DNA of 35,766 nucleotides from Gallionellaceae bacterium (GTDB lineage Bacteria; Pseudomonadota; Gammaproteobacteria; Burkholderiales; Gallionellaceae): positions 34,320 through 70,085 of the forward strand of contig PLYB01000275.1 in NCBI GenBank assembly GCA_003151655.1, read 5' to 3'. The notes beneath the pieces are model-generated. The model searched no databases. It was given only the letters and a program-made list of their open reading frames with translations, and was not told where the DNA came from. Positions within the stretch are counted from its first letter, which is position 1. Every line of letters begins with the position of its first letter. The position numbers and the translations under genes are program-made. This document shows positions 5,371-33,897 of the stretch, piece after piece.

Positions 5371-5649
5371 ATGCAAATCGGCGTAGCCTATTCCGAACCC
5401 GCGCAGCAACTCTGGTTGCGCATCGAAGTGCCTGACGATGCCACGGTGCAAACCGCCATCGAACAATCCGGCATCCTTAAGAAATTTCCTGCCATTGATC
5501 TTGCCAATGACACCGTCGGCATCTTCGGTAAAGCTGCCGAACTGGATGCCTCGCTCAAACCCGGTGACCGTATTGAGATTTACCGTGCCATCACCGCTGA
5601 TCCGGCCACTGTGCCAAGAAGGGTGATTGCGGGTGAGGACGACGAATAA
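5371..5649 (+). CDS. rnfH: RnfH family ubiquitin-like small protein
   Basis: 92-aa ORF directly after rnfE. The sequence ...GDRIEIYRAITADP is typical of RnfH/UPF0125. Confidence 0.85.
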   Translation: MQIGVAYSEPAQQLWLRIEVPDDATVQTAIEQSGILKKFPAIDLANDTVGIFGKAAELDASLKPGDRIEIYRAITADPATVPRRVIAGEDDE

Positions 5650-5694: not shown

Positions 5695-5799
5695 TGCATA
5701 TCTTACAGCGCAGAATTAGCACTGCATACACAGGTTGATCCCGAAATTCAATAAATTCGTGCGCTGTGCAAAAAATAACCAGCAGTGATACTATGGGTC

Positions 5800-6096
5800 A
5801 TGGCTGAAATTAAAGTGTTTGATGACTCATGGCCATTATCCTTAAAAAACGGTAACGGTGTATTGCGCCGTGAAGTTTGGGTAGATGAGCGGGAGCGGGT
5901 AGTGCGCTACAACCTCGCGTACATCAACCACTCGATTTATCGGGACGATAACGGGCGAGTAGTTGGGTATGACAATGCACACGGTCATCATCATCGGCAT
6001 TACATGGGCGTGATTACGCCAGTCAAATTCAGCAGTTTTGAAGACATCGAAGAAAAGTTTCAGGCTGACTGGATTGAGTTTAGGGGCAAAAAATGA
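5800..6096 (+). CDS. Small putative toxin, TumE/DUF6516-like
   Basis: 98-aa ORF starting at the ATG at 5800. It carries the His-rich YDNAHGHHHRHY motif. Its stop overlaps (ATGA) the start of a downstream wHTH gene. The family name is recalled from memory and is not verified. Confidence 0.5.
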   Translation: MAEIKVFDDSWPLSLKNGNGVLRREVWVDERERVVRYNLAYINHSIYRDDNGRVVGYDNAHGHHHRHYMGVITPVKFSSFEDIEEKFQADWIEFRGKK

Positions 6097-6455
6097 AGAC
6101 GACTATCAAAGTGGCAAGCACGGAAGAATTTTTCCAACGCGGCAAAAAAATTGCGAAGCTGGCAGATCAAGGCAAACGCATTCCGCATGAGCGCGTTATC
6201 TCGTTTGAAGACCCGGAAGATTTGGCACGGCTGATTACAACGGCAAAGCTTGTCCTATTTCGTGAAGTAAAGGAATGCCCCGGTTCGATAACCGATTTGT
6301 CGCAACGCTTGCACCGGGATCGCAGCGCCGTAAAGCGTGATATTGATGAACTGGAACGATTCGGCTTGGTGGAAATAGAGGAATTGCCTTTTCCCGGACA
6401 TGGACGTAAAAAAGAAGTTCGTGCTGTTGCCGAGCAAGTGTTGCTGGCTATGTGA
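6093..6455 (+). CDS. Winged-HTH DNA-binding protein, putative cognate antitoxin
   Basis: 120 aa. The segment ...ITDLSQRLHRDRSAVKRDIDELERFGLVE is a MarR/ArsR-like wHTH. Translationally coupled to the upstream small ORF. Confidence 0.6.
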   Translation: MKTTIKVASTEEFFQRGKKIAKLADQGKRIPHERVISFEDPEDLARLITTAKLVLFREVKECPGSITDLSQRLHRDRSAVKRDIDELERFGLVEIEELPFPGHGRKKEVRAVAEQVLLAM

Positions 6456-6549
6456 ACTTGCAGCGGGAAAAAGTCAGTGCCTAGGTTAATCTCTTCGGGT
6501 GCGCCAGAAGAGATGAATCTGGGCACTGGCAAGCTGTCATATTATTACC

Positions 6550-7383
6550 CTAGCTGTCTTTATCCCATGTGCGCTTGACAAGTCCAGCTATCTTGGAAAA
6601 TGACTCGGCGTTAGATTCAATCGCAGTCGAATCGACTGTGATAAGAATTAACTTTGGCTTTCGCGTAAAGGATATCTTTGCCTCATCAAGAATTTGTTGA
6701 GCATCATCTGCCAAGTGAGGAGCAATACGAAATCCGAGAAGTGATTTGTTTCCACTCCGTTTGTGTAGCCAAAAGTAGTTGTTCCGACCAATGTTGAGAG
6801 CGATGTAGTTCTTGACGTAACCAAGTTGTGGCGCTCCGAGTGCCGGTGTCACTACTGATAATATCTTATCGGCGGCATCAACCGTCCACTTAGCTTTCTT
6901 GTTCCAAAATTCGCGATTCACTTCGACTTCAAGCACAGACGAACCGTCGTCTATTTCCTCAAATGTATCGAGCACTTTCGTGAAGAACAATGAACGCTTA
7001 CCGTTGGACTCGATGAGAGATGCTTGAATAGCGATGATTGGTATAGAGTGACTGAGAATGTGGATGACATTGAAGAAGCGACGAGTGACATGCTCCGCTA
7101 CAAGAACTGCATAGTGCTGACGCTGAGGCCAGCGTCTCTTCTCATTGTCCCAGTATTCAATGGTTCGAATGATGTGCGTCTCGTCGGTCTCACCGAGCAT
7201 CACCTCGACCTCATACATGGAATCGTCTTGAGGGTCTTTGAGCAAAATGTCCAGACGTCCGCCTGAGTTCTGGCTACGTTCCTTGTTTAGCGCGTCGAGA
7301 TCACCCAAGCCCAAGGCGGCTGGATTACCCCAGATTTGATCCTGTAGCCAGTACTCGTCAAAGCCTGCTTCGCGGATAGACAC
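6550..7383 (-). CDS. Hypothetical protein, possible PD-(D/E)xK nuclease-fold N-terminal domain
   Basis: 277-aa ORF with no competing frame. GGRLDILLKD...YEVEVMLGE resembles the D...ExK restriction-endonuclease-like core, but the Lys position is not obvious. The function is uncertain. Confidence 0.45.
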   Translation of the reverse strand: MSIREAGFDEYWLQDQIWGNPAALGLGDLDALNKERSQNSGGRLDILLKDPQDDSMYEVEVMLGETDETHIIRTIEYWDNEKRRWPQRQHYAVLVAEHVTRRFFNVIHILSHSIPIIAIQASLIESNGKRSLFFTKVLDTFEEIDDGSSVLEVEVNREFWNKKAKWTVDAADKILSVVTPALGAPQLGYVKNYIALNIGRNNYFWLHKRSGNKSLLGFRIAPHLADDAQQILDEAKISFTRKPKLILITVDSTAIESNAESFSKIAGLVKRTWDKDS

Positions 7384-7545
7384 GGAATGTGCGATTGTAA
7401 TCTCTCTTGACCTCTACTAGTTATTTGAGCACCAATTACCCCCGTCAAAGTAACACGGGGGGCTGTAAATATCGGAATGCACACTAACAACTAAAGGTCG
7501 TGAGGGCAACAGGATAAATGGCCTATATGAGTTTTGGGATCCAGC

Positions 7546-7616
7546 GTAGCCCGGATGTAATCCGGGATGATCGGAGAGCGCAATCCCCGAATTCCACTGC
7601 GCTGCATTCGGGCTAC
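7546..7616. repeat. REP-like inverted-repeat element
   Basis: Outer arms gtagcccggatg and cattcgggctac match at 11 of 12 positions. An inner hairpin is cccggat-gta-atccggg. Confidence 0.6.
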
Positions 7617-7708
7617 GGGTAGCTGTAGAGCTGTATCAGAAAGTTGAGCACTGATCAGTATTCACGCCGCCAAGCGTTGGCGATCAAAGGGCGCGGGTTC
7701 ACATTGTT

Positions 7709-8059
7709 TTATTCATGCACCACCAGCGTATTGCGGGTGATTTCAACGAACCGGCTGGATGTAAAGGCTGCTTCAATGCCGGATAAGTTCGCACGCAGCA
7801 GTTTCTCCAAATCAGTGTTGCTGATGTTGCCAGTGGAGATTAATAACAGTGATGGTTCGCCCGTTATCAAGAAGGTCTGAACGAAGTCAGCATCTTTGCT
7901 GACCACGATGCGCCCATCGCGCTTGGCTCGGGTTATGACTTCGTTGTCTAGTGTGAGATTTTTGCGCGGCAGGTCAAGAGTGTGCAATGCATCGTGTCCA
8001 GCCTCGTTCAGCCAGTTGGCGAAGCGACGTGGAAGTTGCGCATCGATCAGGAATTTCAT
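7709..8059 (-). CDS. DUF5615-type PIN-like putative toxin
   Basis: 116 aa, MKFLIDAQLPRRFANWL... Typical partner of DUF433 proteins. Its ATG overlaps the stop of the upstream DUF433 gene. Confidence 0.75.
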   Translation of the reverse strand: MKFLIDAQLPRRFANWLNEAGHDALHTLDLPRKNLTLDNEVITRAKRDGRIVVSKDADFVQTFLITGEPSLLLISTGNISNTDLEKLLRANLSGIEAAFTSSRFVEITRNTLVVHE

Positions 8060-8280
8060 GCGTCCAAGCGATCCAACCGTTTAATATGAGTCAGACGCGC
8101 GGCATAAGACAACGCCGCCAAAATATCTTCACGTTCCAGATCGTTATAATCAGCCAGAATCTCTTCAGTGGTCATGCCACTGGCCAGCCATTCCAGCACG
8201 TTTTCCACCGGATAACGCAGGCCTCGAATACAAGGCTTGCCGTGACATACCAAAGGGTCAACTGTAATGCGATCACTCAT
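8056..8280 (-). CDS. DUF433 domain protein (putative antitoxin)
   Basis: MSDRITVDPLVCHGKPCIRGLRYPV... is the DUF433 signature. The start is moved to the ATG at 8280, which follows a GGAGG SD. Confidence 0.8.
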   Translation of the reverse strand: MSDRITVDPLVCHGKPCIRGLRYPVENVLEWLASGMTTEEILADYNDLEREDILAALSYAARLTHIKRLDRLDA

Positions 8281-8374
8281 TATTCTGCCTCCTGGTTTCT
8301 TAAATATCACTTAGGGTGCGATTCATAGAGGTACATCTTACACCAGATACGGGGTGCATTTTTCAACCTTGCGC

Positions 8375-9061
8375 TTATTTACAGCTAAGTCGATACACTT
8401 TGTACTCGACACGTTTTACGTCCGTATTTTGAGATGCAGGGTCGGCCTCAAACACGCTTTCCACATAAGCCAAGTCAATCTCGAAGCCATCTGAATAGAT
8501 GTTTTTGATTTCTTCGTCCACGCCAATGGCTTGGCTCATTGATACATTTTCTGCTGCGTCTTCTATGGTCAGCAGAAATACTTTTGAGGTCTTTGCTACC
8601 AGCTTGTGTAATTGTTTAACGTATAGAGCGCGAATATTTTCCGGTAAGGAAGTGAGCGCCGCTCGATCATAGGCGGCATCAAAGAAACCAATATCTGCTT
8701 TGGTTAATGCAAAATAATCGCCACACAAAATACTGATATTGCCATGACTCCATAGCGTGAATTGCCCGACAACCCGTTTGACAGGCTGCAAGTTATTCTC
8801 TTGAAAAAAGGCGCTCACTGCGACAGGACTAAGTTCTACGCCAATGACCTCATGCCCACGGTCAGCAAGCCAGATCATATCCAGACTCTTGCCGCATAGC
8901 GGAACAAATATACGGCTACCCACGCCGGATTCCAGGCTAGGCCAAAATTTGATGAGTAAGGGATTAACTTCTGTTTGATGGAAATCGGTGCGTTGATCTA
9001 GCCAGCATTGCAACCATAAATGATTGTCGCGGTTACTATGAACTAGGCCGTGGTTATCCAC
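8375..9061 (-). CDS. tpm: Thiopurine S-methyltransferase family protein
   Basis: FHQTEVNPLLIKFWP...RIFVPLCGKSLDMIWLADRGHEVIGVELSPVAVSAFF matches the bacterial TPMT signature. The GTG start is inferred. Confidence 0.85.
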   Translation of the reverse strand: MDNHGLVHSNRDNHLWLQCWLDQRTDFHQTEVNPLLIKFWPSLESGVGSRIFVPLCGKSLDMIWLADRGHEVIGVELSPVAVSAFFQENNLQPVKRVVGQFTLWSHGNISILCGDYFALTKADIGFFDAAYDRAALTSLPENIRALYVKQLHKLVAKTSKVFLLTIEDAAENVSMSQAIGVDEEIKNIYSDGFEIDLAYVESVFEADPASQNTDVKRVEYKVYRLSCK

Positions 9062-9087: not shown

Positions 9088-9492
9088 TTATTCAATGCGT
9101 TGCTTCTTCAAAAATGCTGCCAGCGCACCATCCATCATGGCCAGGTGCGTGTCGAACCATTCGGGCAATCCTTCGCGTACGTAGGCACGTACTAACGGCA
9201 ATCGGCCTCGTTTAAGGCTGCGGTTGAGTTGTTGCAATTCACCGAGTACGCGGTGGTGCTCGCCTTCATGCACACCCAGCCCTTGATATTTTGCATCGCG
9301 CATCAGTTTGCCCTCGGCGATGAAGTGTTCGCGGGTATGGGTGACTAGCGTTTGAAACAAAAAAGGGAAGTCGGCATCGCTGGCGGCGATGAGCGCGGCA
9401 ACTTGGGCGATGAAGTCGCGATGTGCGCCATCGATTTCATCAACGCCTAAGTTGTGACGGGATTCGTCCCAAATTGCCTGATACTTGCTCAT
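9088..9492 (-). CDS. Hemerythrin-like metal-binding protein
   Basis: 134 aa from the ATG at 9492. Ligand pattern: H in GAHRDF, HTREHFIAE, HEGEHHRV, and HLAMMD. Its ATG overlaps the stop of the upstream SIR2-like gene (ATGA). The ORF-track extension to 9624 overlaps that gene. Confidence 0.8.
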   Translation of the reverse strand: MSKYQAIWDESRHNLGVDEIDGAHRDFIAQVAALIAASDADFPFLFQTLVTHTREHFIAEGKLMRDAKYQGLGVHEGEHHRVLGELQQLNRSLKRGRLPLVRAYVREGLPEWFDTHLAMMDGALAAFLKKQRIE

Positions 9493-10349
9493 GCCGCTGC
9501 GAGGCTGCCATTCCACGCTTGTGCGGCGGTGAGAAAATCTGCCACGTCGGCATTCACGATCTCGACGTTGAGCCTGTCCAGATAACGTTTTTCTTTGTCG
9601 GTCGGATGCGGGATAAGCGCCCACCCTGCGGGCTTGTCTGCGCCGAAGATGACATCGGAAAATACCATACGGTCAGTATCGCGATTGAGGCGCAGGCCGA
9701 GCAACAGGTAGCGTTTATTCTGGCGAGAACGTTTAACAAATGAGGGGATGGCGAACCCGCCCATCAGCTCGGTGATGTAATCGACGAAGTCGGCATCCGA
9801 CGCGATGTAGTTTGATTCCGGCAGCGGCGAGCCGAGCGGCTTAAACAGAATTGGCAGGCTGGTATCAACTGCCTCATGTTCAACGGCGGAGTAACTCGTG
9901 CCATCGTATTTGTAGATACGGAAGCGATACTCTTTTCCGGACATGCGCGCGATGCCGACGATCAGTGTGTGCGGCGTGGCGGCATATTGTTTCTGCAATT
10001 GCGTGTCACGATTGGCATCGATGATGTAGGGCAACTTTTGCTGACCGAGCCATTCGTGCAGAGAAGATATGCTCCACGGCGTATCGCGATAAGTGGCATC
10101 GAGAAACTTGGTGATTGCCGAGCGTCCGCGCTTCAGTTCCACATTCATCGCCGCACGCGGAAATTCGTACATCAGCTTGGGAGCCATCGGCTGACCGTTG
10201 TTCATCGCCAGAATCAGACTATCGCTGTCGGCGGGGATGGCTTTGCCGCTTTCCGGGCAGATCACACCATTAAGAGCTCCGGGGCCGAGATAGGGAATGA
10301 CGCTGCCATCGGCAAGGCCGGTGAAGATGTTTTCGAACCGTGGATTCAT
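9489..10349 (-). CDS. SIR2-like (SIR2_2-type) domain protein
   Basis: 286 aa with a GAGGAG SD. The motif order YLGPGA / IIDANRD / LFKPLGSP / YLLLGLRLNRDTD parallels the SIR2-like layout GAG / TNYD / KLHGS / LGxSxxD. The usual His position reads Leu. Assignment is by eye only. Confidence 0.55.
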   Translation of the reverse strand: MNPRFENIFTGLADGSVIPYLGPGALNGVICPESGKAIPADSDSLILAMNNGQPMAPKLMYEFPRAAMNVELKRGRSAITKFLDATYRDTPWSISSLHEWLGQQKLPYIIDANRDTQLQKQYAATPHTLIVGIARMSGKEYRFRIYKYDGTSYSAVEHEAVDTSLPILFKPLGSPLPESNYIASDADFVDYITELMGGFAIPSFVKRSRQNKRYLLLGLRLNRDTDRMVFSDVIFGADKPAGWALIPHPTDKEKRYLDRLNVEIVNADVADFLTAAQAWNGSLAAA

Positions 10350-10386
10350 TTGGTTAACTCCTCAGGGTAACTATTGTGAGTTACCT

Positions 10387-10402
10387 TGCAAAAATCGCGC
10401 CA
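10387..10402 (-). promoter_or_regulatory. Candidate sigma54 (-24/-12) promoter for the SIR2-like/hemerythrin unit
   Basis: The minus strand reads TGGCGC-GATTT-TTGCA, against the consensus TGGCAC-N5-TTGCA. Spacing is exact. The site is 38 nt upstream of the ATG at 10349. Confidence 0.6.
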
Positions 10403-10495
10403 TATCGTTAATCCAGTATTAACGAGGGATGCGGCTTGGTGCGGCTTGGAGCAAATGCGACAAAGTTATAAATCTTGTCGTGTGCAGGTATCTAG

Positions 10496-10562
10496 GTAGG
10501 GGCGTATGGCAATACGCCTTATCACGGTGCGCAACGAAGGGCGTATTGCCATACGCCCCTAC
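10496..10562. repeat. Perfect 23-bp inverted repeat (REP-like or terminator-like) just downstream of draT
   Basis: gtaggggcgtatggcaatacgcc (10496-10518) is the exact reverse complement of ggcgtattgccatacgcccctac (10540-10562). Confidence 0.85.
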
Positions 10563-10566
10563 GATT

Positions 10567-11469
10567 TTAATACGCCGCAATGCTCACTTCATACAATCCG
10601 CCAATCACCGTGTATTCATCTTCGCCTTGCAGCATGCCGGGCAGCAATTGCGTGTGGCAGAATATTTTGGCAAGCGGTACTTGCGCGGTTAGCAGGTAGT
10701 CACCGAACTCATCGGCACGTTCTCGGTTGGCGGTGAAGGAACTCAGATTATTGAACAGCACGACACGGTTTTTGTTATCCAGCGTTGCCAGCGTCTCGTA
10801 GTCGTCTACGCTGTTTACACCGCGATATAAGGTGAGATGAGTCCTGTCTAGTTGCTGCTTGACTAGTTCATATTGGCAATATGAATAGAGTAAATCGAAC
10901 TGTGCTTCAACTGCGTTGGTGCCATACAGCGCGGTGGCGCGCATCTCCAGATAACGTCGATAGGCATCCCCGGAAAAGTCGCGTATCGGCCCGGCGTGAT
11001 GTCGTGGTAGCAAACCGAAACGCGACTCTACCCAGCCCTTGAGTGCGGCACCTTCGCTGCCATCTGCATCAAATCCCCAGCCGCGCATCATGCGCAAGTA
11101 ATCCGCTTTTTGTCGCTTGTTAGTGGTTTGTGGCGAGTAACCGGCCTGCTCCGGCTGGTCGAGATAGAACGCGGCATTCATGTGCAAAGTAAAAGCTTGC
11201 GCGCGTTCACTGGCATCGTCAAGGCGATCCAGCAACGAGAATAAACCCTGATGAAATTGGGCTACGCCGTCGAGTTCGAGCGCTACAGGCGCGCGTTGAA
11301 AAGTGAGTCCGCCCAAGATGGACGCAGGCAGATTGCAGCGATTGATCGGTAGGCGTGCGCTGCGCGGTAATTGCAGCGACGAAGTTGTAGTCACTGCGAC
11401 AAAGCAATCTGTTTTGTTGTGTTCCACTTCCGCCAATGGATTTTGAGCTGAATTATTTTTCTCTGGCAT
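10567..11469 (-). CDS. draT: NAD+--dinitrogen-reductase ADP-D-ribosyltransferase (DraT)
   Basis: LKGWVESRFGLLP, FDLLYSYCQYEL, HLTLYRGVN and GEDEYTVIGGLYEVS match remembered DraT blocks. The gene is divergent from nifH, as in Rhodospirillum and Azospirillum. Confidence 0.85.
   Translation of the reverse strand: MPEKNNSAQNPLAEVEHNKTDCFVAVTTTSSLQLPRSARLPINRCNLPASILGGLTFQRAPVALELDGVAQFHQGLFSLLDRLDDASERAQAFTLHMNAAFYLDQPEQAGYSPQTTNKRQKADYLRMMRGWGFDADGSEGAALKGWVESRFGLLPRHHAGPIRDFSGDAYRRYLEMRATALYGTNAVEAQFDLLYSYCQYELVKQQLDRTHLTLYRGVNSVDDYETLATLDNKNRVVLFNNLSSFTANRERADEFGDYLLTAQVPLAKIFCHTQLLPGMLQGEDEYTVIGGLYEVSIAAY
11386..11401 (+). promoter_or_regulatory. NifA upstream activator sequence (TGT-N10-ACA)
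   Basis: TGTagtcactgcgACA lies about 100 nt upstream of the nifH -24 element, inside the 5' end of the draT coding region. Confidence 0.6.
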
Positions 11470-11498: not shown

Positions 11499-11514
11499 TG
11501 GCACGGGGTTTGCA
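11499..11514 (+). promoter_or_regulatory. sigma54 promoter of nifH
   Basis: TGGCAC-GGGGT-TTGCA is a perfect -24/-12 consensus, 68 nt upstream of the nifH ATG. Confidence 0.85.
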
Positions 11515-11563: not shown

Positions 11564-12463
<900 letters not shown>

Positions 12464-19499: not shown

Positions 19500-20099
19500 T
19501 CATTGCTGGCTAGTTTTCGCCGGCCCAAACAGAGCCAGCATTTTGGAAATGTCCTCGTCCAGTTTAACTTTGCTTGCATCATCTGTTTTCATCCACATCT
19601 CTTGAAAGCGCATGGCATCGCCACCGAATAACACTGTCTGGTTGCGGATGCGATCTCCCTTATTCGGTAAAACTTGGGTTTCTGATCCGCCTGCGTAGTG
19701 GGCTAATACCTCGGTATCCAGAACTACAGGAGTAACTCCTTCCGGATAGATGCGAACACCGAAAATACTTGAACCAAACGTACTATCGTTGTCTCCAATA
19801 TTCCAGATTCGCCAAATGTAATGCGTTCCAATGTAACCATGCCACTGCACCAGATTGCCTTCAGCGTAGTCGTGTTTGTCGTCGTCATACCAGACAATTG
19901 CTCTGTTATCTGGCAATAGCACAACCAGCATCATCTGACCGTCATCTCCAAGCACAGAGTAGGACACGGGTGTAGTAGGCGACTTCCATGGAACGATAAT
20001 TTGGCTTTTGATCCCGATGATGATTATGGCAAGCACGATAACCCCCATAATTGCTTTGCCAATCCATGCTGATACTTTGCTGACGATGGTAGATAGCAT
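19500..20099 (-). CDS. Membrane-anchored hypothetical protein
   Basis: ATG at 20099 follows GAGGTG. One N-terminal TM helix (AIMGVIVLAIIIIGI). No recognisable domain. Lies in the AT-richer region. Confidence 0.6.
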   Translation of the reverse strand: MLSTIVSKVSAWIGKAIMGVIVLAIIIIGIKSQIIVPWKSPTTPVSYSVLGDDGQMMLVVLLPDNRAIVWYDDDKHDYAEGNLVQWHGYIGTHYIWRIWNIGDNDSTFGSSIFGVRIYPEGVTPVVLDTEVLAHYAGGSETQVLPNKGDRIRNQTVLFGGDAMRFQEMWMKTDDASKVKLDEDISKMLALFGPAKTSQQ

Positions 20100-20152
20100 T
20101 GTTGTCACCTCGACGATGTCCAACAGTTATTGGCACCCAACATCATTGCACC

Positions 20153-20620
20153 TTACGCGGATTCATCATTGCGATCGATTTTATCTAGGAAGCGCTGCAT
20201 TGCTGGAGTTATTGGCTTTGAAAAACCAAACTTTCCATAGGCACTCTTGAAACTTGGCCAAATTTCAGGAAGCAAGCCGCGTGACCTAAAGTATGGATGC
20301 AACCAAATCCAGTCTAATTCATATTTACTTGAATTTATAGCAGTGTTTCGTTCACGAAAACAGCATGCACCGACATACCGTCCTTGATCTATGAACAAGT
20401 ATGCCTCATATGGAACGAACCAATCATCTCCGGGACACTCGGCAGCTTCAAACTGAATCGCGCCCCTCCTCCGTTCACGCAAGAAGTAAGTCGCAAAGCG
20501 CTCAACTTGTTTTTTGAGCATTTTAGACGAATTTGGATTGACACATTTTAGCTTTGTACTCGTAGTAAATTTTGCCTTAGGCAGAATAATCGAGTAATAG
20601 AGCGTTTCACGATCAGTCAT
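20153..20620 (-). CDS. Hypothetical protein, possible GNAT-like fold
   Basis: 155 aa. WIWLHPYFRSRGLL resembles the GNAT acetyl-CoA-binding R/Q-x-x-G-x-G/A segment. The assignment is weak. Confidence 0.45.
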   Translation of the reverse strand: MTDRETLYYSIILPKAKFTTSTKLKCVNPNSSKMLKKQVERFATYFLRERRRGAIQFEAAECPGDDWFVPYEAYLFIDQGRYVGACCFRERNTAINSSKYELDWIWLHPYFRSRGLLPEIWPSFKSAYGKFGFSKPITPAMQRFLDKIDRNDESA

Positions 20621-20638
20621 AGGTGACCTACTTTGATA

Positions 20639-21703
20639 TCAAGGTAGGTAAGAAAAATCTCTGCACTGAGATAATCGCCCCCAAGACTCATCTTCTTCCA
20701 TGCATGCTTGCAAACTTGATGATCTTGTATATTCCTCAGACTTTGTCTCAGTTGAAGTAGGTGCCCTATATCGTGCAGAGCATTCATCAACTTTTTTATT
20801 TTTTTGTATATTAGCGAAATCAGCCTCGCCGCGAGAGTATGCCACCAACATCGCCGAAGGTTTGAGATTTGGTCTGCTAAGTAAAAAAGTGTTTATACGG
20901 TCAAGCTCAGCCTCGGATTTTGACAGCAATTCCTTAATCATCACTCTCCCTTTCTCAATGCTTTCTTTATAAGGTGGATAGCGGTCCATCTTTTCGCGCT
21001 CAACTTGAGATGAAATTGCTGCATCAAATTGTGCACTTTGTTTCACATATGCTGCAAGCCCTTCTTTTGCAACAGCACTACAATATGACGCTTTTAACTC
21101 CGCTTCATTAGGCATTTGGAATTGCTGTACTATTGGAGATTGGTGATCGGTTCCCTGAGCGGGGGAAGTAGGCGCGACTGGAGCAACTGTGCCGCTCAGT
21201 TCCTTGAGTTTATCTACCACTTGTGCCCCATCACATTTTTTGCAGGGCAGGGATTCCGAATACACGACCTTGTTATCAAAAATGTTCTGAATACTTAATG
21301 CGAGATAATATATTCCTTCTTGCTTAGTGATATTCGCCGTTGCAATCAACTCAGCCTGAAATGCAATTGCGATATTCTGCATACATTTTGTTTCGTCACA
21401 TTCTTTATGGGCAGTATTGCGATTTTCCTTCATGAATATCTCATGTGCTTTTTGTGAAACTTGTTCGCCAGAATAAACATCATATTTTCGTTGAAGCCCC
21501 TTAACTAGGGCTGTCTCCATTGCTCCAGTCAGGTTTTTATCCTCATATGGGATACGCAGGGGCATGAGAACGAGTCGCTCTTTTGTCGACTCATCTGTCT
21601 GGTGCTTGTTTTTGGATGCGGCTTGAGACTGTAGGGGGATTGCACTCAAGCAGAGGGTGACGATGACAATACCGAACAGATTATGCAGCTTTAATGTGCG
21701 CAT
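20639..21703 (-). CDS. Secreted hypothetical protein
   Basis: ATG at 21703 gives MRTLKLHNLFGIVIVTLCLSAIPLQSQAAS, a signal peptide. Cys-containing N-domain. No recognised family. Confidence 0.6.
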   Translation of the reverse strand: MRTLKLHNLFGIVIVTLCLSAIPLQSQAASKNKHQTDESTKERLVLMPLRIPYEDKNLTGAMETALVKGLQRKYDVYSGEQVSQKAHEIFMKENRNTAHKECDETKCMQNIAIAFQAELIATANITKQEGIYYLALSIQNIFDNKVVYSESLPCKKCDGAQVVDKLKELSGTVAPVAPTSPAQGTDHQSPIVQQFQMPNEAELKASYCSAVAKEGLAAYVKQSAQFDAAISSQVEREKMDRYPPYKESIEKGRVMIKELLSKSEAELDRINTFLLSRPNLKPSAMLVAYSRGEADFANIQKNKKVDECSARYRAPTSTETKSEEYTRSSSLQACMEEDESWGRLSQCRDFSYLP

Positions 21704-22006
21704 GTGTTTTGGCTTTTGTTGGTTGTGATTCCCCATCCTCGACAGGGCTGGGGTTATTCTAACCGAAACCGCCAAGATTGGAAGGCGGGCGGTTGTTCTG
21801 CTTCGTGCACAATCCCGAACTTCACGGTATCAAATAGCACGCCATAAAGCAGCCTTTCCCCATCGGCAGTTCATGGACGACAGCAGAAGTTTAAGCTTAA
21901 TTATGCAACGCCGTAAAGCAGTCACTCGCGACTATTTTCATGTCGCGTTAGAAAGAAACTGCCAGCCAGACGACATCGGAGCGACAAGGCATAAATGCAG
22001 CACCGG

Positions 22007-22207
22007 TTACTTTTCTTTCTTTTTCCACTCGTCCGTCAGCATCCCGGCGAATCCCCAGTCTTCTTCATTGATTTCCTGAATAACGATGTGCGTGTGTTCC
22101 GGTTTTTTGCCGAGAACGCGTACCAGTGTATCTGTGACCTCTTTGACTAACTGGGACTTTTGTTCTCGTGTCGCGCCCTTGGTGATTTGAATATTTACGT
22201 ATGGCAT
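22007..22207 (-). CDS. 4-oxalocrotonate tautomerase family protein
   Basis: 66 aa. MPYVNIQITKGATREQKSQLVKEVTDTLVRVLGK has the catalytic Pro1 and the family signature. Confidence 0.85.
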   Translation of the reverse strand: MPYVNIQITKGATREQKSQLVKEVTDTLVRVLGKKPEHTHIVIQEINEEDWGFAGMLTDEWKKKEK

Positions 22208-22211
22208 TTTG

Positions 22212-23282
22212 CTAATTTCCTTGTGGATGAGACATCTTTAACCAGTTGGCATTGAAGTATTCAGGAATGGCACCCGGTGTCATTTCCGCGCGACTGCCAA
22301 TCGGGCAAGCTGCGCTGTCGATCTGGTGCAGCCATTCTCTAAAGCGCAGCATGCTCACCGGATTCATCACGCATGATTTTTGGCCGAAGGGATGGCCGAA
22401 TTGAAACAGCATGTGCCCGATCTCGTGCGCCAGATAAGCTCCCGACAATTCGGCGGCTTCCTCATCCGAATATGTTTCACCACCGCGTAACAGCTTGGTG
22501 TGCTTTGAACTGTCTTGAAACGGAAATGTGCTCCAGACGATATAGGTACCGAATTTGCTGTTGCGGCTGTAGGTGGTTAAGCCAACCGTGACACCGCCGC
22601 GAATTGCGGTATGGATATCAACGCCGACGTATTCTGCGCTGGCAAAAAGTTGATTTGTAATCACTAACTCATAAGGAAGATTGCCATAACCCAAAATGTC
22701 CCAATAAGTAATTTCGTTGTAGGGCGTGGCATCAAGCACCGGTGCACCGTCAGCCGCTTTAACAGTGCGCCATCCTTCCAGTCTTTCCAGCATCACATCC
22801 GACAGTAATTCAGAAAATGACCCCAAGTCTGTTGCATGTGCACCCGGTAGATAGGGTTTTACATAGGCAAGCCCGTCTTGCCATTTGGTTCCTCGTTCGG
22901 TGAGCGTGGTGTTGATTCCCTTGGTGAGTTTTTTCTTGTCGCCCGTACCGGATTTAAAGTCGTAGATGGAAGATTTTCGCAGCTCACCAAGTTGCGGCGG
23001 TATGAGCGCAAATATTTGCGCTATCCCCGTTTCCGCAACTTCGGTGAATTCGACATTGACACCGAAATTTTTCTTAACGGTTGCCTGGGCAGAAGCCAGC
23101 ATGATACGAATTTGCTCGGGAGACATCCGCGCCAGACGCTCGTTGTTTGCGTTGACGACGCGAATTTGAACTGTAGCGCCGGGCTTGGCGGAAGTGAAAG
23201 GTGCTTTCTGCCATTTGCCGCCAAATTCCTGACAGCCGCATAGCAGCATGACAATTACTAAACAAAGGTACTTAACTCGCAA
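22212..23282 (-). CDS. Lipoprotein with zinc-metallopeptidase-like motif
   Basis: TTG start preceded by GGGGAG. Lipobox LLCGC. HEIGHMLFQFGHPFGQKSCVM resembles the archaemetzincin-type motif HExxHxxGxxH...CxM. Confidence 0.6.
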   Translation of the reverse strand: MRVKYLCLVIVMLLCGCQEFGGKWQKAPFTSAKPGATVQIRVVNANNERLARMSPEQIRIMLASAQATVKKNFGVNVEFTEVAETGIAQIFALIPPQLGELRKSSIYDFKSGTGDKKKLTKGINTTLTERGTKWQDGLAYVKPYLPGAHATDLGSFSELLSDVMLERLEGWRTVKAADGAPVLDATPYNEITYWDILGYGNLPYELVITNQLFASAEYVGVDIHTAIRGGVTVGLTTYSRNSKFGTYIVWSTFPFQDSSKHTKLLRGGETYSDEEAAELSGAYLAHEIGHMLFQFGHPFGQKSCVMNPVSMLRFREWLHQIDSAACPIGSRAEMTPGAIPEYFNANWLKMSHPQGN

Positions 23283-23384: not shown

Positions 23385-24056
23385 TTATCTTCGTAAAGTG
23401 AAATTAATGGGAACAATCACTGCGGCGGCAACCGCCTTACCATCTTGGCGAGCTGGAACGAACTTCCAGCGCCAAACGGCATCTATCGACGCTTGGTCAA
23501 GATGGGGAAACCCGCTGCTACGGTAGACTGTCACTGCGTTTGGGCGACCATCTTCGGTGACGAGGATGCGCAGGATGACACGGCCTTCTTCTACTTGTAT
23601 TCTGGACTCTTGTGGATATTCTGGAGCCGGGTTGGACAAATAGTCAGTATCGAACCGAGGCGAGACCACCGCGCCTTGTGGTACGGGTGTGTTCACCGTA
23701 TCCTGTGTATTACGCATAGTCTGTGTCACTGCGACCGATGAAGAAGGGGATTCATTTGCCAGCAATATCGGTAGCGGCTGTGGCTCGGCACGGTGCAGAT
23801 CGTCGCGCAAGAGCTGCGGCTTGGGCACCCTTTTAAATTTTGGTGTTGAGGCCAATGGATTAGCTTGCGCTGCCTTCAGTAAGACGACACCGAGAGCGCG
23901 GGGTGGCCTATCGAGTTGGCGGTGAGGGGTAAATTCAGCCAGCAATAAAAACGCGAGCACATGGATTAGTAGGGCTATCGCCAAACATATAAGCAATCGA
24001 TAGCGTTCATTGCCCGATGAGTGTCCAATTGGGAAAACTGGCTCTAAGGTTTTCAT
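23385..24056 (-). CDS. tonB: Energy transducer TonB
   Basis: N-terminal anchor (LLICLAIALLIHVLAFLLL), a Pro-rich linker and a C-terminal TonB domain (YPQESRIQVEEGRVILRILV...WKFVPA). The start at ATG 24056 is preferred over 24185. Confidence 0.75.
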   Translation of the reverse strand: MKTLEPVFPIGHSSGNERYRLLICLAIALLIHVLAFLLLAEFTPHRQLDRPPRALGVVLLKAAQANPLASTPKFKRVPKPQLLRDDLHRAEPQPLPILLANESPSSSVAVTQTMRNTQDTVNTPVPQGAVVSPRFDTDYLSNPAPEYPQESRIQVEEGRVILRILVTEDGRPNAVTVYRSSGFPHLDQASIDAVWRWKFVPARQDGKAVAAAVIVPINFTLRR

Positions 24057-24295
24057 TCGCTGCCCACGATGTTTAAAGCCGTCACAGCATAGACTTATCA
24101 AAGTACGCCAGCCAAGGTACTGGTTATTTCGGAGGACGGTGTGCTTCATCACAAGCCTTCTTTTGTCATCACGAATGAATGGCAATCAAAACCTACTGAG
24201 CCTTGCCGCGCTGGACAAAGGCTCTGCGTGGAGTTCAAAAGCAATTGGCCTGTTACACGGTTTCTATAATTCGCCGAGAAACTTTCCCCTTTCGT

Positions 24296-25645
24296 TCATA
24301 GCGACTCAAGAAATTTAAGCAATGCTCGTCTATCGGGCACAGTCATGTCCTTTACTGCCCGTGCAGCTTCAACTCCTTCACCGTCATGCCACAAAACGGC
24401 TTCAAGCAAGTTTCTGGCGCGACCATCGTGTAGAAATCCTGCGCGAGGCTCGACCTTTTGTGCGAGGCCGATTCCCCATAATGGCGGTGTGCGCCATTCG
24501 CGGCCTGTTGCCAGATAGTCTGGACGCTGATCGGCAAGTGCATCACCCATGTCGTGCAGTAACAGGTCGGTGTAGGGATGGATGGTTTGGCGTGTCAAAG
24601 TCGGATAGCTTGGAAAGTTGGATGTTTTCAATTCCGATACATGGCAGGCGGCACACTGCGCTTGTTTGAATAACAATGCACCGCGTTTTACATCGGTATT
24701 TTCAACGTTACGCTGACGCGGCGCAGCCAAGGAAAAGTGATAGAATTCAGCGGCATCCAGTTGTTCTGTACTTAGTTCCGGCTTTCCGGCAGAAGGGGAT
24801 TGCTGGCAAACTATTTGAGCTTCCGTGCAATTTTCCTGTGGAAATAGTGGTGATGTGATGCCCATGTCACCTACAAATGCTCCGGCAATTTGCTGCCGCA
24901 GATTAGGCATATTGGCTTTCCATCCGAAGCGACCCAATACAGTTTTTTGCTGAACCACATCCCAGACACGATTGACTTTGCCTTTGATGCCCTTGGGTTT
25001 TGGCGTATCGACCAGTGCGACGATGTCTGCTTCCGATACGGCTTGAAGTAGCCCCAGACCAAAAATTGGCGGTGCGATGCGCGGCGATGTCAGCATGTCG
25101 AGTGAAAATTCTCCATAGGCCAGATCGACAAAGGTCAGGTTGGGTTTACGCAGCATGACCTGTTTACCGCCATTGAGTTTGATCGCTTGTTCGGTATAAC
25201 GCACTTCCGCTCTACCTTCACCGGGTACACCCGGTACACCGTTCTCATTTAATTGGCCACCGTAGGCAAGGTGCGGCTTGGGGCCACCATGCGCATCGGT
25301 GCCGGGAATACTCAAACGTACCAGCATCGAACGCATTGGTTCCTGCGGTGTAGCCGGAGCAAATCCGCGCCCGTTTCCGGCATGGCAGGCGATACACGAA
25401 ATACGGTTGTATAGCGGGCCGAGTCCCGAAATCTCGCGATTTTCACTGGGCGGAATAACCCAACTTTGCCGTACCAGAGCACGCCCTTTGAAAAATTTAG
25501 GGCGATCTGTTTCAGATAGTGCAGGCACGGGCTGGGTATAAGCTTCACGCGTGGCATCATCGGTGGTGATCAAAGATTCATCAGCGATTACCGGATGGCT
25601 CAGCGTCAAAGTGGCTATCAAACTGCATAAGTACAATGGTTTCAT
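24296..25645 (-). CDS. Di-haem c-type oxidoreductase (DUF1111-like)
   Basis: Signal peptide from ATG 25645. Two CxxCH motifs (CIACH and CAACH). Its ATG overlaps the stop of the upstream binding-protein gene. Confidence 0.75.
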   Translation of the reverse strand: MKPLYLCSLIATLTLSHPVIADESLITTDDATREAYTQPVPALSETDRPKFFKGRALVRQSWVIPPSENREISGLGPLYNRISCIACHAGNGRGFAPATPQEPMRSMLVRLSIPGTDAHGGPKPHLAYGGQLNENGVPGVPGEGRAEVRYTEQAIKLNGGKQVMLRKPNLTFVDLAYGEFSLDMLTSPRIAPPIFGLGLLQAVSEADIVALVDTPKPKGIKGKVNRVWDVVQQKTVLGRFGWKANMPNLRQQIAGAFVGDMGITSPLFPQENCTEAQIVCQQSPSAGKPELSTEQLDAAEFYHFSLAAPRQRNVENTDVKRGALLFKQAQCAACHVSELKTSNFPSYPTLTRQTIHPYTDLLLHDMGDALADQRPDYLATGREWRTPPLWGIGLAQKVEPRAGFLHDGRARNLLEAVLWHDGEGVEAARAVKDMTVPDRRALLKFLESL

Positions 25646-26919
25646 TTCTGGCTTCCCAATATTTCCTGCGCTAATTGTGTAGCCTGAGCATAATGCTTGG
25701 CGATGTCCGCATCCCATTGCTGCTCAATACTTTCTGAATGACTGTCGCGCCTGATGAATGAGTGTTGGAGATCATTGTCATTGACCTGAGCTAATGTTAG
25801 CGGTAGCCAATTGGCCTGACTGTGTGCGACTTTTAGTCGAGGATCGTCAGGGGCTTTTTGCTCGGCTTGATGAATCGTTACCCACATTGTTTTCAACGCT
25901 GCATGATGGCGAGTAATCAGCGCGTCGAATAATGCCCCGACAACTTCCTGCCGCGCTAAGCCGGATGCCATATCGTACTTGTAGGAAGCACGCTGCGCAG
26001 CGGCAAACGGATCGAAATAGCCATCCGGTTTGTGGGCATACACAGATGGTCGCACAGGCAATTTGCGGATGTCGGGATGGAACAAAATCTTTTGTCCCTG
26101 TTCTGACAGTACAAAATTGGCAAAAGCTCGCGCACCCTCAAGATGCGCAGCATCGTTAAAAATTGCAATGTGAGCCGGGGAATATCCAACCTTTTCAGGA
26201 TAAGCAAAGCGCAAAGGCTTGCCATTGGCAATCGCGGAAGTGGCAAAAAAATCTATGGTTGCGCCCACCGCTATTCGTCCACTGCCAACATCATCTGAAA
26301 TGAAAGCCGAACCGGCATCTGCCAAGCTGGCATTGGCGGCTACTTGTTCAAGAATGCTCCAACCTTGCTCCCAGCCATAGCCTTGCAGCAAAGTGTCAAC
26401 CAGCATAGGGGCATAACCAGTCTTGGACGGGATTGGAAAAGCAATATGACCGCTGAAAGCAGGTGAGGTCAGCGTCTTCCAATCAATCGGCACCGGCAAC
26501 CCCAAGCGATGCAATTCGCCTGGATTGTAGGCCATGCCGAATCCTGCTGTTTCGGTGGCGACATAGAAACCGTCAGGGTCGGAAATCTGAAATCCGCCGA
26601 TTACTTTCGGCAAGCCATTCAAGTCAATATCCAACTTACGGAATGCGCCTTCTTTTGCTAGTACAGCAAAATTGCGTTGCGCCGGAGTCCAGTACACATC
26701 AATTGCACCATGCGGCTGGTGCAGATAGGACATGGCATCTCTGGATTGCCGCCAGAGAATCTCAAGTTGGAATTGCGGATAGGCTTGCTCGAATGCCGCC
26801 TCGAATTGCGTAACGACTTCCTGCGGATAGCTGGTCAACACCACTACCTTTTCAGTGGCGCTGGCCAGTTGCGACAACAACAAAAGCACTACTGAAACGA
26901 TCCATATAATCTGCGTCAT
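25642..26919 (-). CDS. Periplasmic solute-binding protein (family-1 type) with C-terminal extension
   Basis: Signal peptide MTQIIWIVSVVLLLLSQLASA. Type-II SBP-like body (KVVVLTSYPQEV...) plus a helical tail of about 90 aa. No permease or ATPase is present in this operon. Confidence 0.7.
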   Translation of the reverse strand: MTQIIWIVSVVLLLLSQLASATEKVVVLTSYPQEVVTQFEAAFEQAYPQFQLEILWRQSRDAMSYLHQPHGAIDVYWTPAQRNFAVLAKEGAFRKLDIDLNGLPKVIGGFQISDPDGFYVATETAGFGMAYNPGELHRLGLPVPIDWKTLTSPAFSGHIAFPIPSKTGYAPMLVDTLLQGYGWEQGWSILEQVAANASLADAGSAFISDDVGSGRIAVGATIDFFATSAIANGKPLRFAYPEKVGYSPAHIAIFNDAAHLEGARAFANFVLSEQGQKILFHPDIRKLPVRPSVYAHKPDGYFDPFAAAQRASYKYDMASGLARQEVVGALFDALITRHHAALKTMWVTIHQAEQKAPDDPRLKVAHSQANWLPLTLAQVNDNDLQHSFIRRDSHSESIEQQWDADIAKHYAQATQLAQEILGSQK

Positions 26920-26949
26920 AAATATACTCCTGAAACATCAAGTGGCATT

Positions 26950-26991
26950 GGCGATACGGATAAGATTTTGTGTGCACGTATCCGAATCGCC
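26950..26991 (-). other. Intercistronic hairpin between the receptor and binding-protein genes
   Basis: ggcgatacggata and tatccgaatcgcc pair at 12 of 13 positions, with a 16-nt loop. Confidence 0.5.
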
Positions 26992-27007
26992 AAATGTTTT
27001 AACTACT

Positions 27008-29126: not shown

Positions 29127-29400
29127 GCTAAAACGTTTCAGCAAAGGGCGTGCCAAAGTCGTAGAGTGCGATGGCATGGGAGCTTTCATAATGTTGACCA
29201 ATAGCGTTGTAGCCTAAAGGTTGTAACGAATGCGCCAAATTGTTTTTAAGCCTACAAGGGAAAAGGATTTAGACGGGGGTTGCAAATAAATAACATTCAC
29301 TGAAATTCAGTCGCAGCCTGATATAGCAGGGGCGATGAATATTGTGGCATCGCTTTTGCTCAGCGTTAGGTTGTAGATAGTTATAACGAACGAGGTCATT

Positions 29401-33004: not shown

Positions 33005-33538
33005 ATGAAAGAAGCCCTAGTTGCACTCAACAAAGCCTGTGAATCCGGTGTTATTGACGGGTACGCCATCGGCGGCGCAATCGGTGCTTCTTTCTATATC
33101 GAGGCAGTCAACACCGAAGACGTAGACGCGTTCGTATTCCTCACCCCGCCAGCCGAATCAGCCCTGATTACGCTTACCCCGCTTTACGACGAACTGATCC
33201 GGTTGGGTGGGGTTGTCGAAAACGAGTATATTCGTTTTGGCAGTTGGCCAGTTCAAATTCTGCCTGCTTACAAGCCGCTTGTTGAGGAGGCGATTTTTAA
33301 CGCAGTCGAGGTTCTATTTGGTGACATCAAGACGAAAGTATTTACGGCTGAATACTTGTGCGCTATTGCATTGGACACTGGAAGAATCAAAGATTATTAT
33401 AGGGTCGCCATGTTTATTGAGCAATCGGCGGTGAATCTGGATGAATTAGAAGTGCTGGTTGATCGTTTTGAGTTGCAAGAGAGAGTTCGACATGTCCAAA
33501 ATTGGCCCGAAAAACACAACATTCAAAAGCCGCGATGA
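33005..33538 (+). CDS. Nucleotidyltransferase-fold hypothetical protein
   Basis: 177 aa. GGAIGASFY...TEDVDAFV fits the G-[SA]...DxD motif of minimal nucleotidyltransferases. Confidence 0.5.
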   Translation: MKEALVALNKACESGVIDGYAIGGAIGASFYIEAVNTEDVDAFVFLTPPAESALITLTPLYDELIRLGGVVENEYIRFGSWPVQILPAYKPLVEEAIFNAVEVLFGDIKTKVFTAEYLCAIALDTGRIKDYYRVAMFIEQSAVNLDELEVLVDRFELQERVRHVQNWPEKHNIQKPR

Positions 33539-33833: not shown

Positions 33834-33849
33834 TGGCACGTTGGTTGCT
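33834..33849 (+). promoter_or_regulatory. sigma54 promoter of the LRV operon
   Basis: TGGCAC-GTTGG-TTGCT, 49 nt upstream of the ATG at 33898. Confidence 0.75.
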
Positions 33850-33897
33850 TTTGTCCATTAAAGATTTATTGCGGAGCGATGATTGAAAGTATTGGAT

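Follow-up and report, generated by a model that had tools for sequence, protein, structure and literature searches.

The PnfA family takes its name from a gene of Pseudomonas stutzeri A1501, pnfA (PST1325), which was described in 2010 as a new NifA-sigma54-dependent gene that is divergent from nifHDK and encodes a 31.7-kDa protein (Yan et al. 2010, PMC2820453). In the present work we examine a gene of this family, together with the hemerythrin gene that directly follows it, in a stretch of 35,766 nucleotides (referred to throughout as the window) from the genome of a Gallionellaceae bacterium (GenBank assembly GCA_003151655.1, contig PLYB01000275.1, positions 34,320 to 70,085 of the forward strand). 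A non-polar pnfA mutant of P. stutzeri transcribes nifH normally; its nitrogenase activity is 23% of that of the wild type at 0.5% O2, is that of the wild type under strict anaerobiosis and is lost when nitrate serves as the electron acceptor (PMC2820453). A role for PnfA in electron transfer or in oxygen protection was proposed from this work, in a strain that has neither DraT nor DraG. Homologues of PnfA were found only in diazotrophs (P. azotifigens, 92%; Azotobacter vinelandii, 72%; Azoarcus BH72, 55%; Dechloromonas aromatica, 54%; Halorhodospira, 49%) and a second subfamily was noted at approximately 20% identity (PMC2820453). A faint likeness of the protein to UspA or ETF-alpha was all that was noted; its SIR2 fold, and the loss of a catalytic histidine that we describe below, were not recognised at that time. 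PST1325 is now annotated as a 'SIR2 family protein' (PMC11332353), and we found no follow-up in the literature on the mechanism of PnfA.

Genes of the same kind have been met in several other diazotrophs. In Azoarcus olearius BH72 the gene order is draT-azo0536-dcrH1, and azo0536, which carries RpoN and NifA sites, is regulated by NifA (PMC3916325); by RNA sequencing, azo0536 and dcrH1 but not draT are induced during N2 fixation, probably from a secondary promoter (PMC8467165). The nif-linked 'SIR2 family protein' Rcc03262 of Rhodobacter capsulatus is encoded next to NifT and is absent from a nifA mutant (PMC6925177). In Zymomonas mobilis the SIR2 protein ZMO1821 of the nif island is induced and the Nif proteins are acetylated (PMC8600466), and in 23 genomes of Thalassolituus a SIR2 family protein is encoded adjacent to nifH (preprint 10.64898/2026.08.28.747955). 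Hemerythrins embedded among nif genes have also been proposed to serve as an oxygen defence in Thalassolituus. Recent papers have labelled the PnfA-type protein simply as a deacetylase.

We report here a computational analysis of the window and of related loci, which leads us to regard the two genes as, quite probably, the Gallionellaceae copy of a conserved two-gene accessory unit, comprising a PnfA-family protein and a hemerythrin, that belongs to the NifA/sigma54 nif regulon and coexists with DraT and DraG. An earlier note on this DNA, made from its letters alone, had called the pair undescribed, which it is not: the family was named in 2010 and the pair corresponds to azo0536-dcrH1 of Azoarcus. 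What is new is limited to the defence-type SIR2 fold with its family-wide loss of the catalytic histidine, to the hemerythrin that is often coupled to it and to how widely the synteny extends. Many proteobacterial diazotrophs of aerobic or microaerophilic habit have PnfA-type genes in their nif regions, and an understanding of their role is of relevance to the transfer of oxygen-tolerant nitrogen fixation to new hosts.

Fold and active site of the PnfA-family protein

The PnfA-family gene occupies positions 9489-10349 on the minus strand and encodes a protein of 286 amino acids. An AlphaFold2 model of this protein, built on an alignment of 23 sequences (predicted local distance difference test score, pLDDT, 94.4; predicted template modelling score, pTM, 0.92), has a Rossmann fold of the SIR2_2 type. 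The best matches to the model in a Foldseek search of the PDB are the SIR2 domains of KomC/HAM-SIR2, DSR2, ThsA and AVAST5 (probability 1.00, E 4.5e-9 to 1e-6, TM 0.55-0.66), and a profile of the family matches the same SIR2 NADases by sequence (E 4e-9 to 3e-3); a search of the PDB with the single 286-residue sequence returned noise only. The Pfam SIR2_2 model (PF13289) gives the window protein 19.5 bits against a gathering score of 24.5, and many of its orthologues carry a precomputed PF13289 match. The Pfam scan gave no match of the window protein to the sirtuin family PF02146 at E <= 0.1, and neither this protein nor the hemerythrin matches a defence model in PADLOC.

The motifs LGPGA (at residue 21), DANRD (111), KPLGS (170) and SDADFVD (184) supply a glycine loop (G22/G24), a D111-x-N113-R-D115 segment and a K170-P-L172-G173 segment, and their order is that of the defence SIR2 NADases (ThsA of Thoeris, DSR2, KomC/HAM-SIR2 and AVAST5), in which a glycine loop is followed by TNYD-like, K-x-[H]-G and D-x-D-[FY] motifs. 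The PnfA family differs from these enzymes in having methionine or leucine in place of the histidine, in lacking partner or effector domains and in belonging to the nif regulon instead of to defence islands. The earlier note had read the layout of the protein as SIR2-like, with leucine at the position of the usual catalytic histidine, and the model, the fold search and the family profile bear this out: in the family profile alignment L172 is aligned with the histidine of KLHG in PDB entry 7uxt.

The extent of this substitution was followed in a survey of related loci, for which one genome per species was scanned; more than 572 loci were found, and counts are given over 82 genomic loci or over subsets of 76, 64 or 62 loci that have enough flanking sequence for the gene in question. 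The site of the catalytic histidine is occupied by Met in 49 loci, Leu in 28 and His in 2, with Val, Thr and Cys in one each. The residues G22, D111, N113, D115, K170, G173, D185, D187, E194, R209, G218 and R227 are invariant. N113, which is the catalytic asparagine of the TNYD-like motif, is thus found in 82/82 loci; most members of the distant subfamily have tryptophan instead. As a rule no group of members retains the full Asn/His dyad, as judged from the column statistics. The fold of the family, as modelled, is therefore of the SIR2 type with the catalytic histidine replaced family-wide and, because the replacement is by a hydrophobic residue throughout the family, function as a canonical NAD+ hydrolase or lysine deacetylase would appear very unlikely. 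The window protein has a single cysteine and hence no Cys4 zinc module.

The two members with the canonical histidine, L060 and L067, both come from metagenome-assembled genomes of Rhodocyclaceae and keep the asparagine as well; these proteins may be active enzymes or revertants.

The protein database holds 4471 homologues; the closest 120, those listed, all belong to Gallionellaceae, and 'SIR2 family protein' is a frequent name among them. Clustering at 50% gave 258 clusters, many of them of fragments. The long representatives P0126, P0189, P0218, P0141 and P0182 were considered as domain fusions and rejected, since they look like frameshifted or chimeric gene calls. Members from Betaproteobacteria and Gammaproteobacteria are approximately 60% identical to one another, and over 100 columns are invariant in an alignment of 25 orthologues; conservation of this degree would fit a contact with some highly conserved protein, for example NifH.

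We take the 286-residue protein to be a probable homologue of PnfA and azo0536 on the grounds of synteny, size, promoter, NCBI name and the published list of homologues. The P. stutzeri gene and that of the window have in common a product of approximately 31.7 kDa, a -24/-12 promoter of their own with a NifA upstream activating sequence (UAS) and chromosomal linkage to nifHDK; the split into two subfamilies is also seen here, and the published homologues from Azoarcus and Dechloromonas match the genera of two of our loci (L049 and L078). Among the retrieved homologues is also a Thalassolituus protein (P0465). The P. stutzeri gene differs in being directly divergent from nifH, with neither draT nor an adjoining hemerythrin gene, whereas in the window draT lies between and the hemerythrin is coupled.

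The hemerythrin partner

The TGA stop codon of the PnfA-family gene overlaps, in the sequence ATGA, the start codon at 9492 of a gene for a 134-residue bacteriohemerythrin of the dcrH1 type (9088-9492, minus strand). The protein matches PF01814 at E 1.6e-8 (35.5 bits against a gathering score of 25.3) and TIGR02481 at 57.6 against 51.75. Its set of diiron ligands (H24, H56xxxE60, H75xxxH79 and H116xxxxD121) is complete and is invariant in 25 orthologues, for which the orthologous pairs were aligned. With bacteriohemerythrins and the DcrH domain it shares the make-up of a four-helix diiron protein with H, HxxxE, HxxxH and HxxxxD ligands; it differs in being a single-domain protein that is co-translated with the PnfA protein. 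It scores under the equivalog cut-offs of NCBIfam and therefore represents a distinct subfamily.

A hemerythrin gene lies on the same strand within approximately 700 bp downstream of the PnfA-family gene in about 37/76 loci (29 found by script and a further 8, which overlap, by hand), and the overlapping or near-adjacent arrangement of the two genes is kept across relatives. Judged from this arrangement and from the ATGA overlap, the hemerythrin gene is predicted to be translationally coupled to the PnfA-family gene. A second conserved partner was not found in the lineages that lack the hemerythrin, where the downstream genes are mutually unrelated (acyltransferase-like, porin-like, Fe-S oxidoreductase-like or with a role in signalling).

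Promoter and probable control by NifA

A sigma54-type -24/-12 element, TGGCGCGATTTTTGCA (TGGCGC-N5-TTGCA), is found on the minus strand at 10387-10402, starting 53 nt before the ATG of the PnfA-family gene, and is followed by a Shine-Dalgarno sequence, GAGGAG (10358-10363, minus strand), 8 nt ahead of the ATG at 10349. The pattern TGGCRC-N5-TTGCW has 4 matches in the window against an expectation of 0.17 and every match lies upstream of a gene, the other three being nifH, a gene for a TonB-dependent receptor and an LRV-FeS gene. Approximately 45 nt upstream of the -24 element lies a NifA-UAS-like element, TGTCGCATTTGCTCCA (TGT-N10-CCA; 10447-10462, minus strand), that has one mismatch to TGT-N10-ACA.

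These elements are not peculiar to the window. The pattern GG-N10-GC is present 35-110 nt upstream of the start codon of the PnfA-family gene in 62/82 loci, compared with 2/82 for the antisense strand and 2-3/82 for two coding windows that served as controls; a third coding window gave 24, from a conserved coding stretch. At 80-260 nt upstream, 47/82 loci have a perfect TGT-N10-ACA (in many cases TGTCGCAAACCCGACA); the coding controls gave 0, 0 and 3. In most Gallionellaceae loci the TGTCGCATTTGCTCCA variant is kept at the same position, and L009 has the perfect TGTCGCATTTGCAACA. The promoter of the 286-residue protein is thus, as read from its sequence, of the sigma54/NifA type and conserved in relatives. 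In Azoarcus, the position of the probable secondary promoter of azo0536 and dcrH1 is exactly that in which the -24/-12 element of the window lies.

The activator site varies between lineages. Among loci L001-L019 it reads TGT-N10-CCA in Gallionellaceae and GGC-N10-ACA in Thiobacillaceae; most other lineages have TGT-N10-ACA. The conserved variants may represent weaker or altered binding of the activator. Several loci (L048, L057, L072, L035, L066 and others) have no nif gene within 10 kb, by the reference set that was used, yet carry both a -24/-12 element and TGT-N10-ACA upstream of the gene, which indicates that control by NifA may be independent of physical linkage.

Linkage to nitrogen fixation genes

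In the window, draT (10567-11469, minus strand; Pfam DRAT, E 4.7e-101) lies upstream of the PnfA-family gene on the same strand and is divergent from nifH (11582-12463, plus strand), which has its own -24/-12 element at 11499-11514 and retains Arg101, the codon of which, CGC, is at 11882-11884. According to the open reading frame (ORF) listing and the reading of the minus strand, 217 bp separate draT from the PnfA-family gene. This layout had been given in the earlier note, along with the hairpin, promoter and Shine-Dalgarno sequence in the spacer, the overlap of the two genes and the full ligand set of the hemerythrin, the lack of any DraG-like ORF and the toxin-antitoxin (TA) genes just beyond the pair; all of these were reproduced here, the promoter proving to be conserved in relatives, the hemerythrin scoring above the PF01814 gathering score, the lack of DraG holding in tblastn and Pfam searches and the TA genes being recognised as a DUF433/PIN-like pair and a TumE/HTH pair.

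The best 80 loci of the survey come from Gallionellaceae, Thiobacillaceae, Rhodocyclales (Azoarcus, Dechloromonas, Azovibrio and Azonexus), Chromatiaceae, Methylococcales, Sedimenticolaceae, Thiodiazotropha symbionts, Pseudomonadales, Oceanospirillaceae and Cellvibrionaceae, and the named hosts all belong to lineages whose loci here carry nif genes. Mapping of the flanks with a limited set of references, namely the proteins of the window and the Nif proteins of Ferrigenium, showed that 70/82 loci have a nif, rnf or dra gene in such flanking sequence as is available. Because of this the unit cannot be regarded as a chance placement; it is tied to nitrogen fixation, and the nif synteny is conserved over three proteobacterial classes. 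In the usual order nifKDH is divergent from draT, the SIR2-like gene and the hemerythrin gene, which converge on the end of a nifB...nifQ-draG operon (as in L025, L076, L069 and L052). We find nifH upstream and divergent in 35/64 loci and draT upstream on the same strand in 38/76; in 8 loci (from Pseudomonadales, Methylococcales and one member of the Ectothiorhodospiraceae) draT is absent and nifH is the immediate divergent neighbour of the gene. The distant subfamily, which has 25-29% identity, is also linked to nif genes: its gene is the last of a nifA-nifB-fdx-nifZ-nifT operon on Rhizobium etli p42d and lies within the nif cluster of a Methylococcus plasmid.

The whereabouts of draG

The earlier note placed the pair in the slot where draG normally follows draT. 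This description fits the draTG operons of Rhodospirillum and Azospirillum. It does not fit the Beta- and Gammaproteobacteria of our survey, where the usual order is draT, SIR2-like gene, hemerythrin gene, as it is in Azoarcus (seen in Azoarcus indigens, L049). A DraG-like sequence was sought in the window by tblastn with two references (a Rhodospirillum rubrum sequence and the DraG of Ferrigenium, which has PF03747 on record) and by Pfam scans of the large ORFs, and none was found there; both references retrieved the identical 25 loci of the survey. Across the survey, draG (PF03747) is in the flank of 25/82 loci; it lies downstream in 22/62, being convergent in 21 and within 2.5 kb in 12.

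Within the Gallionellaceae, the DraG of a Gallionellales locus (L009) retrieves PF03747 ADP-ribosyl-[dinitrogen reductase] hydrolases from many genomes, including that of Ferrigenium kumadai. Contigs of the same size (475711, 404449, 124310, 101159, 309228 and 34205 nt) occur in the lists of matches to both the SIR2-like protein and DraG, which suggests that in several cases a single Gallionellaceae contig holds both. The F. kumadai pair is flanked by rnfH and draT-nifH, like that of the window, and draG is the last gene of a nifB-fdx-nifO-like-fdx-nifQ-draG series beyond nifLA, approximately 15 kb from the pair and 9 kb past rnfA. Since the window begins at rnfA (base 114), its missing draG is most simply explained as an edge effect, and a syntenic draG would fall just outside. 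Azoarcus differs in having draG approximately 3 kb downstream of the pair (L049), whereas in Gallionellaceae the rnf-nifLA block intervenes. On this evidence from gene order, the pair appears in relatives alongside DraT and DraG and not as a replacement for DraG. As to likeness, DraG and the PnfA-family protein have only their neighbourhood in common, both being nif-linked and often adjacent; there is no relation of sequence or fold between them, and DraG is present in relatives in addition.

The nif supercluster of the iron oxidiser F. kumadai (AP019536.1, approximately 1.109-1.144 Mb; L001, L082) also contains, immediately after nifLA and before nifB, a gene for a 736-residue protoglobin-PAS-GGDEF-EAL protein, suggesting that oxygen-sensing cyclic-di-GMP signalling may operate from inside the supercluster.

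Possible roles of the pair

The reading that we prefer, and think likely, is that the pair is an accessory unit of the NifA/sigma54 nif regulon. The unit would be expressed at times of nitrogenase synthesis, from a -24/-12 promoter of its own that follows draT, and would act post-transcriptionally, keeping nitrogenase active in the presence of oxygen or of another respiratory oxidant. Rather than cleave NAD+, the PnfA protein may bind a ligand or a partner, and may thereby support the supply of electrons to the Fe protein, or its protection, under oxidising conditions; the hemerythrin could contribute the binding or sensing of oxygen. The dependence on NifA/RpoN and the microaerobic phenotype are carried over from the literature on homologues, and would apply here by analogy. 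It is the fold with its lost histidine, the co-translated hemerythrin and the coexistence with DraG, taken together, that reduce the field of hypotheses to the sensing of a ligand or the binding of a protein, with a part in oxygen tolerance or in the supply of electrons.

Several points weigh against this reading. No flanking nif gene was found, by the limited reference set, in 12/82 loci; half of the loci have no adjoining hemerythrin, so that the pair is not obligatory; the UAS of this window has one mismatch; and the window protein by itself falls below the Pfam SIR2_2 threshold, so that of the two family assignments made in the earlier note, that to the hemerythrins stood in the profile searches and that to SIR2_2 came to rest on the predicted structure, the fold search and the profile of the whole family. 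P. stutzeri is not among the 120 homologues listed for a query from Cellvibrionaceae, which did retrieve Thalassolituus, Marinobacterium and Oceanobacter. Ligand binding, and a contact between PnfA and the hemerythrin, are steps that we infer. Finally, loss of the histidine is no proof of inactivity, in that sirtuins of the SirTM type, which have glutamine at this site, are active ADP-ribosyltransferases, an analogy that could extend to PnfA.

The earlier note had proposed that the pair replaces DraG, or that it modulates by oxygen or redox state the ADP-ribosylation of NifH by DraT and DraG. That the gene immediately follows draT in many Beta- and Gammaproteobacteria, and converges on draG in 21/62 loci, can be cited for this, as can a fold of the NAD+-binding type with conserved pocket motifs and a window that is without draG. 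The window, however, stops before the nifB-nifQ-draG block seen in Ferrigenium, and replacement is contradicted by the co-occurrence of draG with the pair in 25 loci and in Gallionellaceae genomes, among them that of F. kumadai; the expected association of the pair with draT and nif genes is present, while the expected exclusion of draG is not. The proposal also sits poorly with the 8 loci in which the gene stands beside nifH with no draT, with the distant subfamily in rhizobial nif operons and with the need for PnfA in the nitrogenase activity of a strain that has neither DraT nor DraG. Rhizobia such as R. etli are not known to carry draTG. A modulating role may nevertheless exist in lineages that have DraT. 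We consider this proposal, as a whole, unlikely.

A related and bolder view, to which we likewise attach only a small probability, is that the histidine-less SIR2-fold protein lies at the heart of an additional, oxygen-responsive control of nitrogenase at the post-translational level, in which the hemerythrin acts as the oxygen sensor. The protein would bind NAD+, ADP-ribose or ADP-ribosyl-NifH, or would transfer ADP-ribose in the manner of SirTM, so that Fe-protein activity or the DraT/DraG cycle is tuned. If true, such a control could also explain the switch-off of nitrogenase in diazotrophs without DraT, such as P. stutzeri.

It is improbable, to a further degree, that the protein is a non-canonical NAD+-dependent ADP-ribosyltransferase that resembles SirTM and acts on a nitrogenase-related target. 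SirTM has a glutamine for the histidine and an Asn/Gln/Arg trio, and is a robust ADP-ribosyltransferase with a hydrolase as its partner and a link to oxidative stress (PMC8120803). The PnfA family shares with it the SIR2 fold without the catalytic histidine, and activity in SirTM survives that loss; N113 and the arginines R76, R209 and R227 are invariant, and draG, a gene for an ADP-ribosylhydrolase, is often adjacent. Where SirTM has glutamine and a zinc domain, however, the PnfA family has methionine or leucine, which are not polar, and no zinc module, and no ADP-ribosyltransferase activity is known for it; the distant subfamily is without even the asparagine, and the pnfA mutant loses nitrogenase activity and shows no gain.

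Still less can be said for a sirtuin that would regulate nitrogenase or NifA by lysine deacetylation, as has been assumed in Zymomonas and Thalassolituus. The NCBI name 'SIR2 family protein', the acetylation of Nif proteins together with the induction of ZMO1821 in Z. mobilis (PMC8600466) and the similar suggestion of the Thalassolituus preprint all point this way, but the protein falls in the SIR2_2 branch, the solved members of which are NADases, and not with the sirtuins and CobB; moreover, the catalytic histidine is missing in 80/82 members and the lone cysteine leaves no means of forming the Cys4 zinc module. The other possibility raised in the earlier note, an anti-phage or stress NADase module that landed beside draT by chance, is scarcely credible: the nearest solved structures are indeed defence SIR2 NADases and TA genes lie a few kb off, but neither protein has a PADLOC match, the catalytic dyad is not intact, the nif synteny extends across three proteobacterial classes with a conserved NifA-type promoter, and the TA and thiopurine S-methyltransferase genes represent a local insertion, which Ferrigenium does not have.

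Other features of the window

A perfect inverted repeat of 23 nt with a 21-nt loop (10496-10562, minus strand; arms 10496-10518 and 10540-10562) was found by the repeat search immediately past the stop codon of draT. It has no trailing U-run and probably separates draT from the next unit as a transcript-end or stabilising structure. We considered whether it might be a repeated element and rejected this: no second copy was found in the window or in the 87 loci searched, and the hairpin is strain-specific, being unique to this window. Rfam recognised no RNA family anywhere in the window.

On the other side of the pair, the interval between rnfH (5371-5649) and the hemerythrin gene contains, at 5785-9061, a thiopurine S-methyltransferase gene, the DUF433/PIN-like TA pair, the TumE/HTH pair and a 277-residue ORF (6550-7383) that matches nothing in Pfam and resembles NucS only faintly. 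F. kumadai has a single small ORF where the window has the TA and thiopurine S-methyltransferase genes, and this convergent gap looks like a local hotspot of insertion.

Beyond the nif genes, four consecutive ORFs on the minus strand (207, 155, 378 and 356 residues; 19500-23282), none of which has a match in Pfam or NCBIfam, adjoin a cluster that encodes TonB, a di-haem oxidoreductase, a solute-binding protein and a TonB-dependent receptor (23385-29068). A consensus sigma54 -24/-12 element, TGGCACGCCCTTTGCT (29140-29155, minus strand), lies approximately 70 nt before the gene for the TonB-dependent receptor (27008-29068), which is divergent from modE/modABC; this suggests that metal uptake via the receptor may be sigma54-dependent and possibly coregulated with nif. 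Towards the end of the window, a gene for a 4Fe-4S leucine-rich-repeat-variant protein (LRV_FeS; 33883-34665, plus strand) is preceded by an ORF of 177 residues (33005-33538) and followed by one of 321 (34662-35627), neither with a Pfam match. It has a further consensus -24/-12 element directly upstream (33834-33849, plus strand), and genes of this type are also present in the nif clusters of P. stutzeri and Methylococcus.

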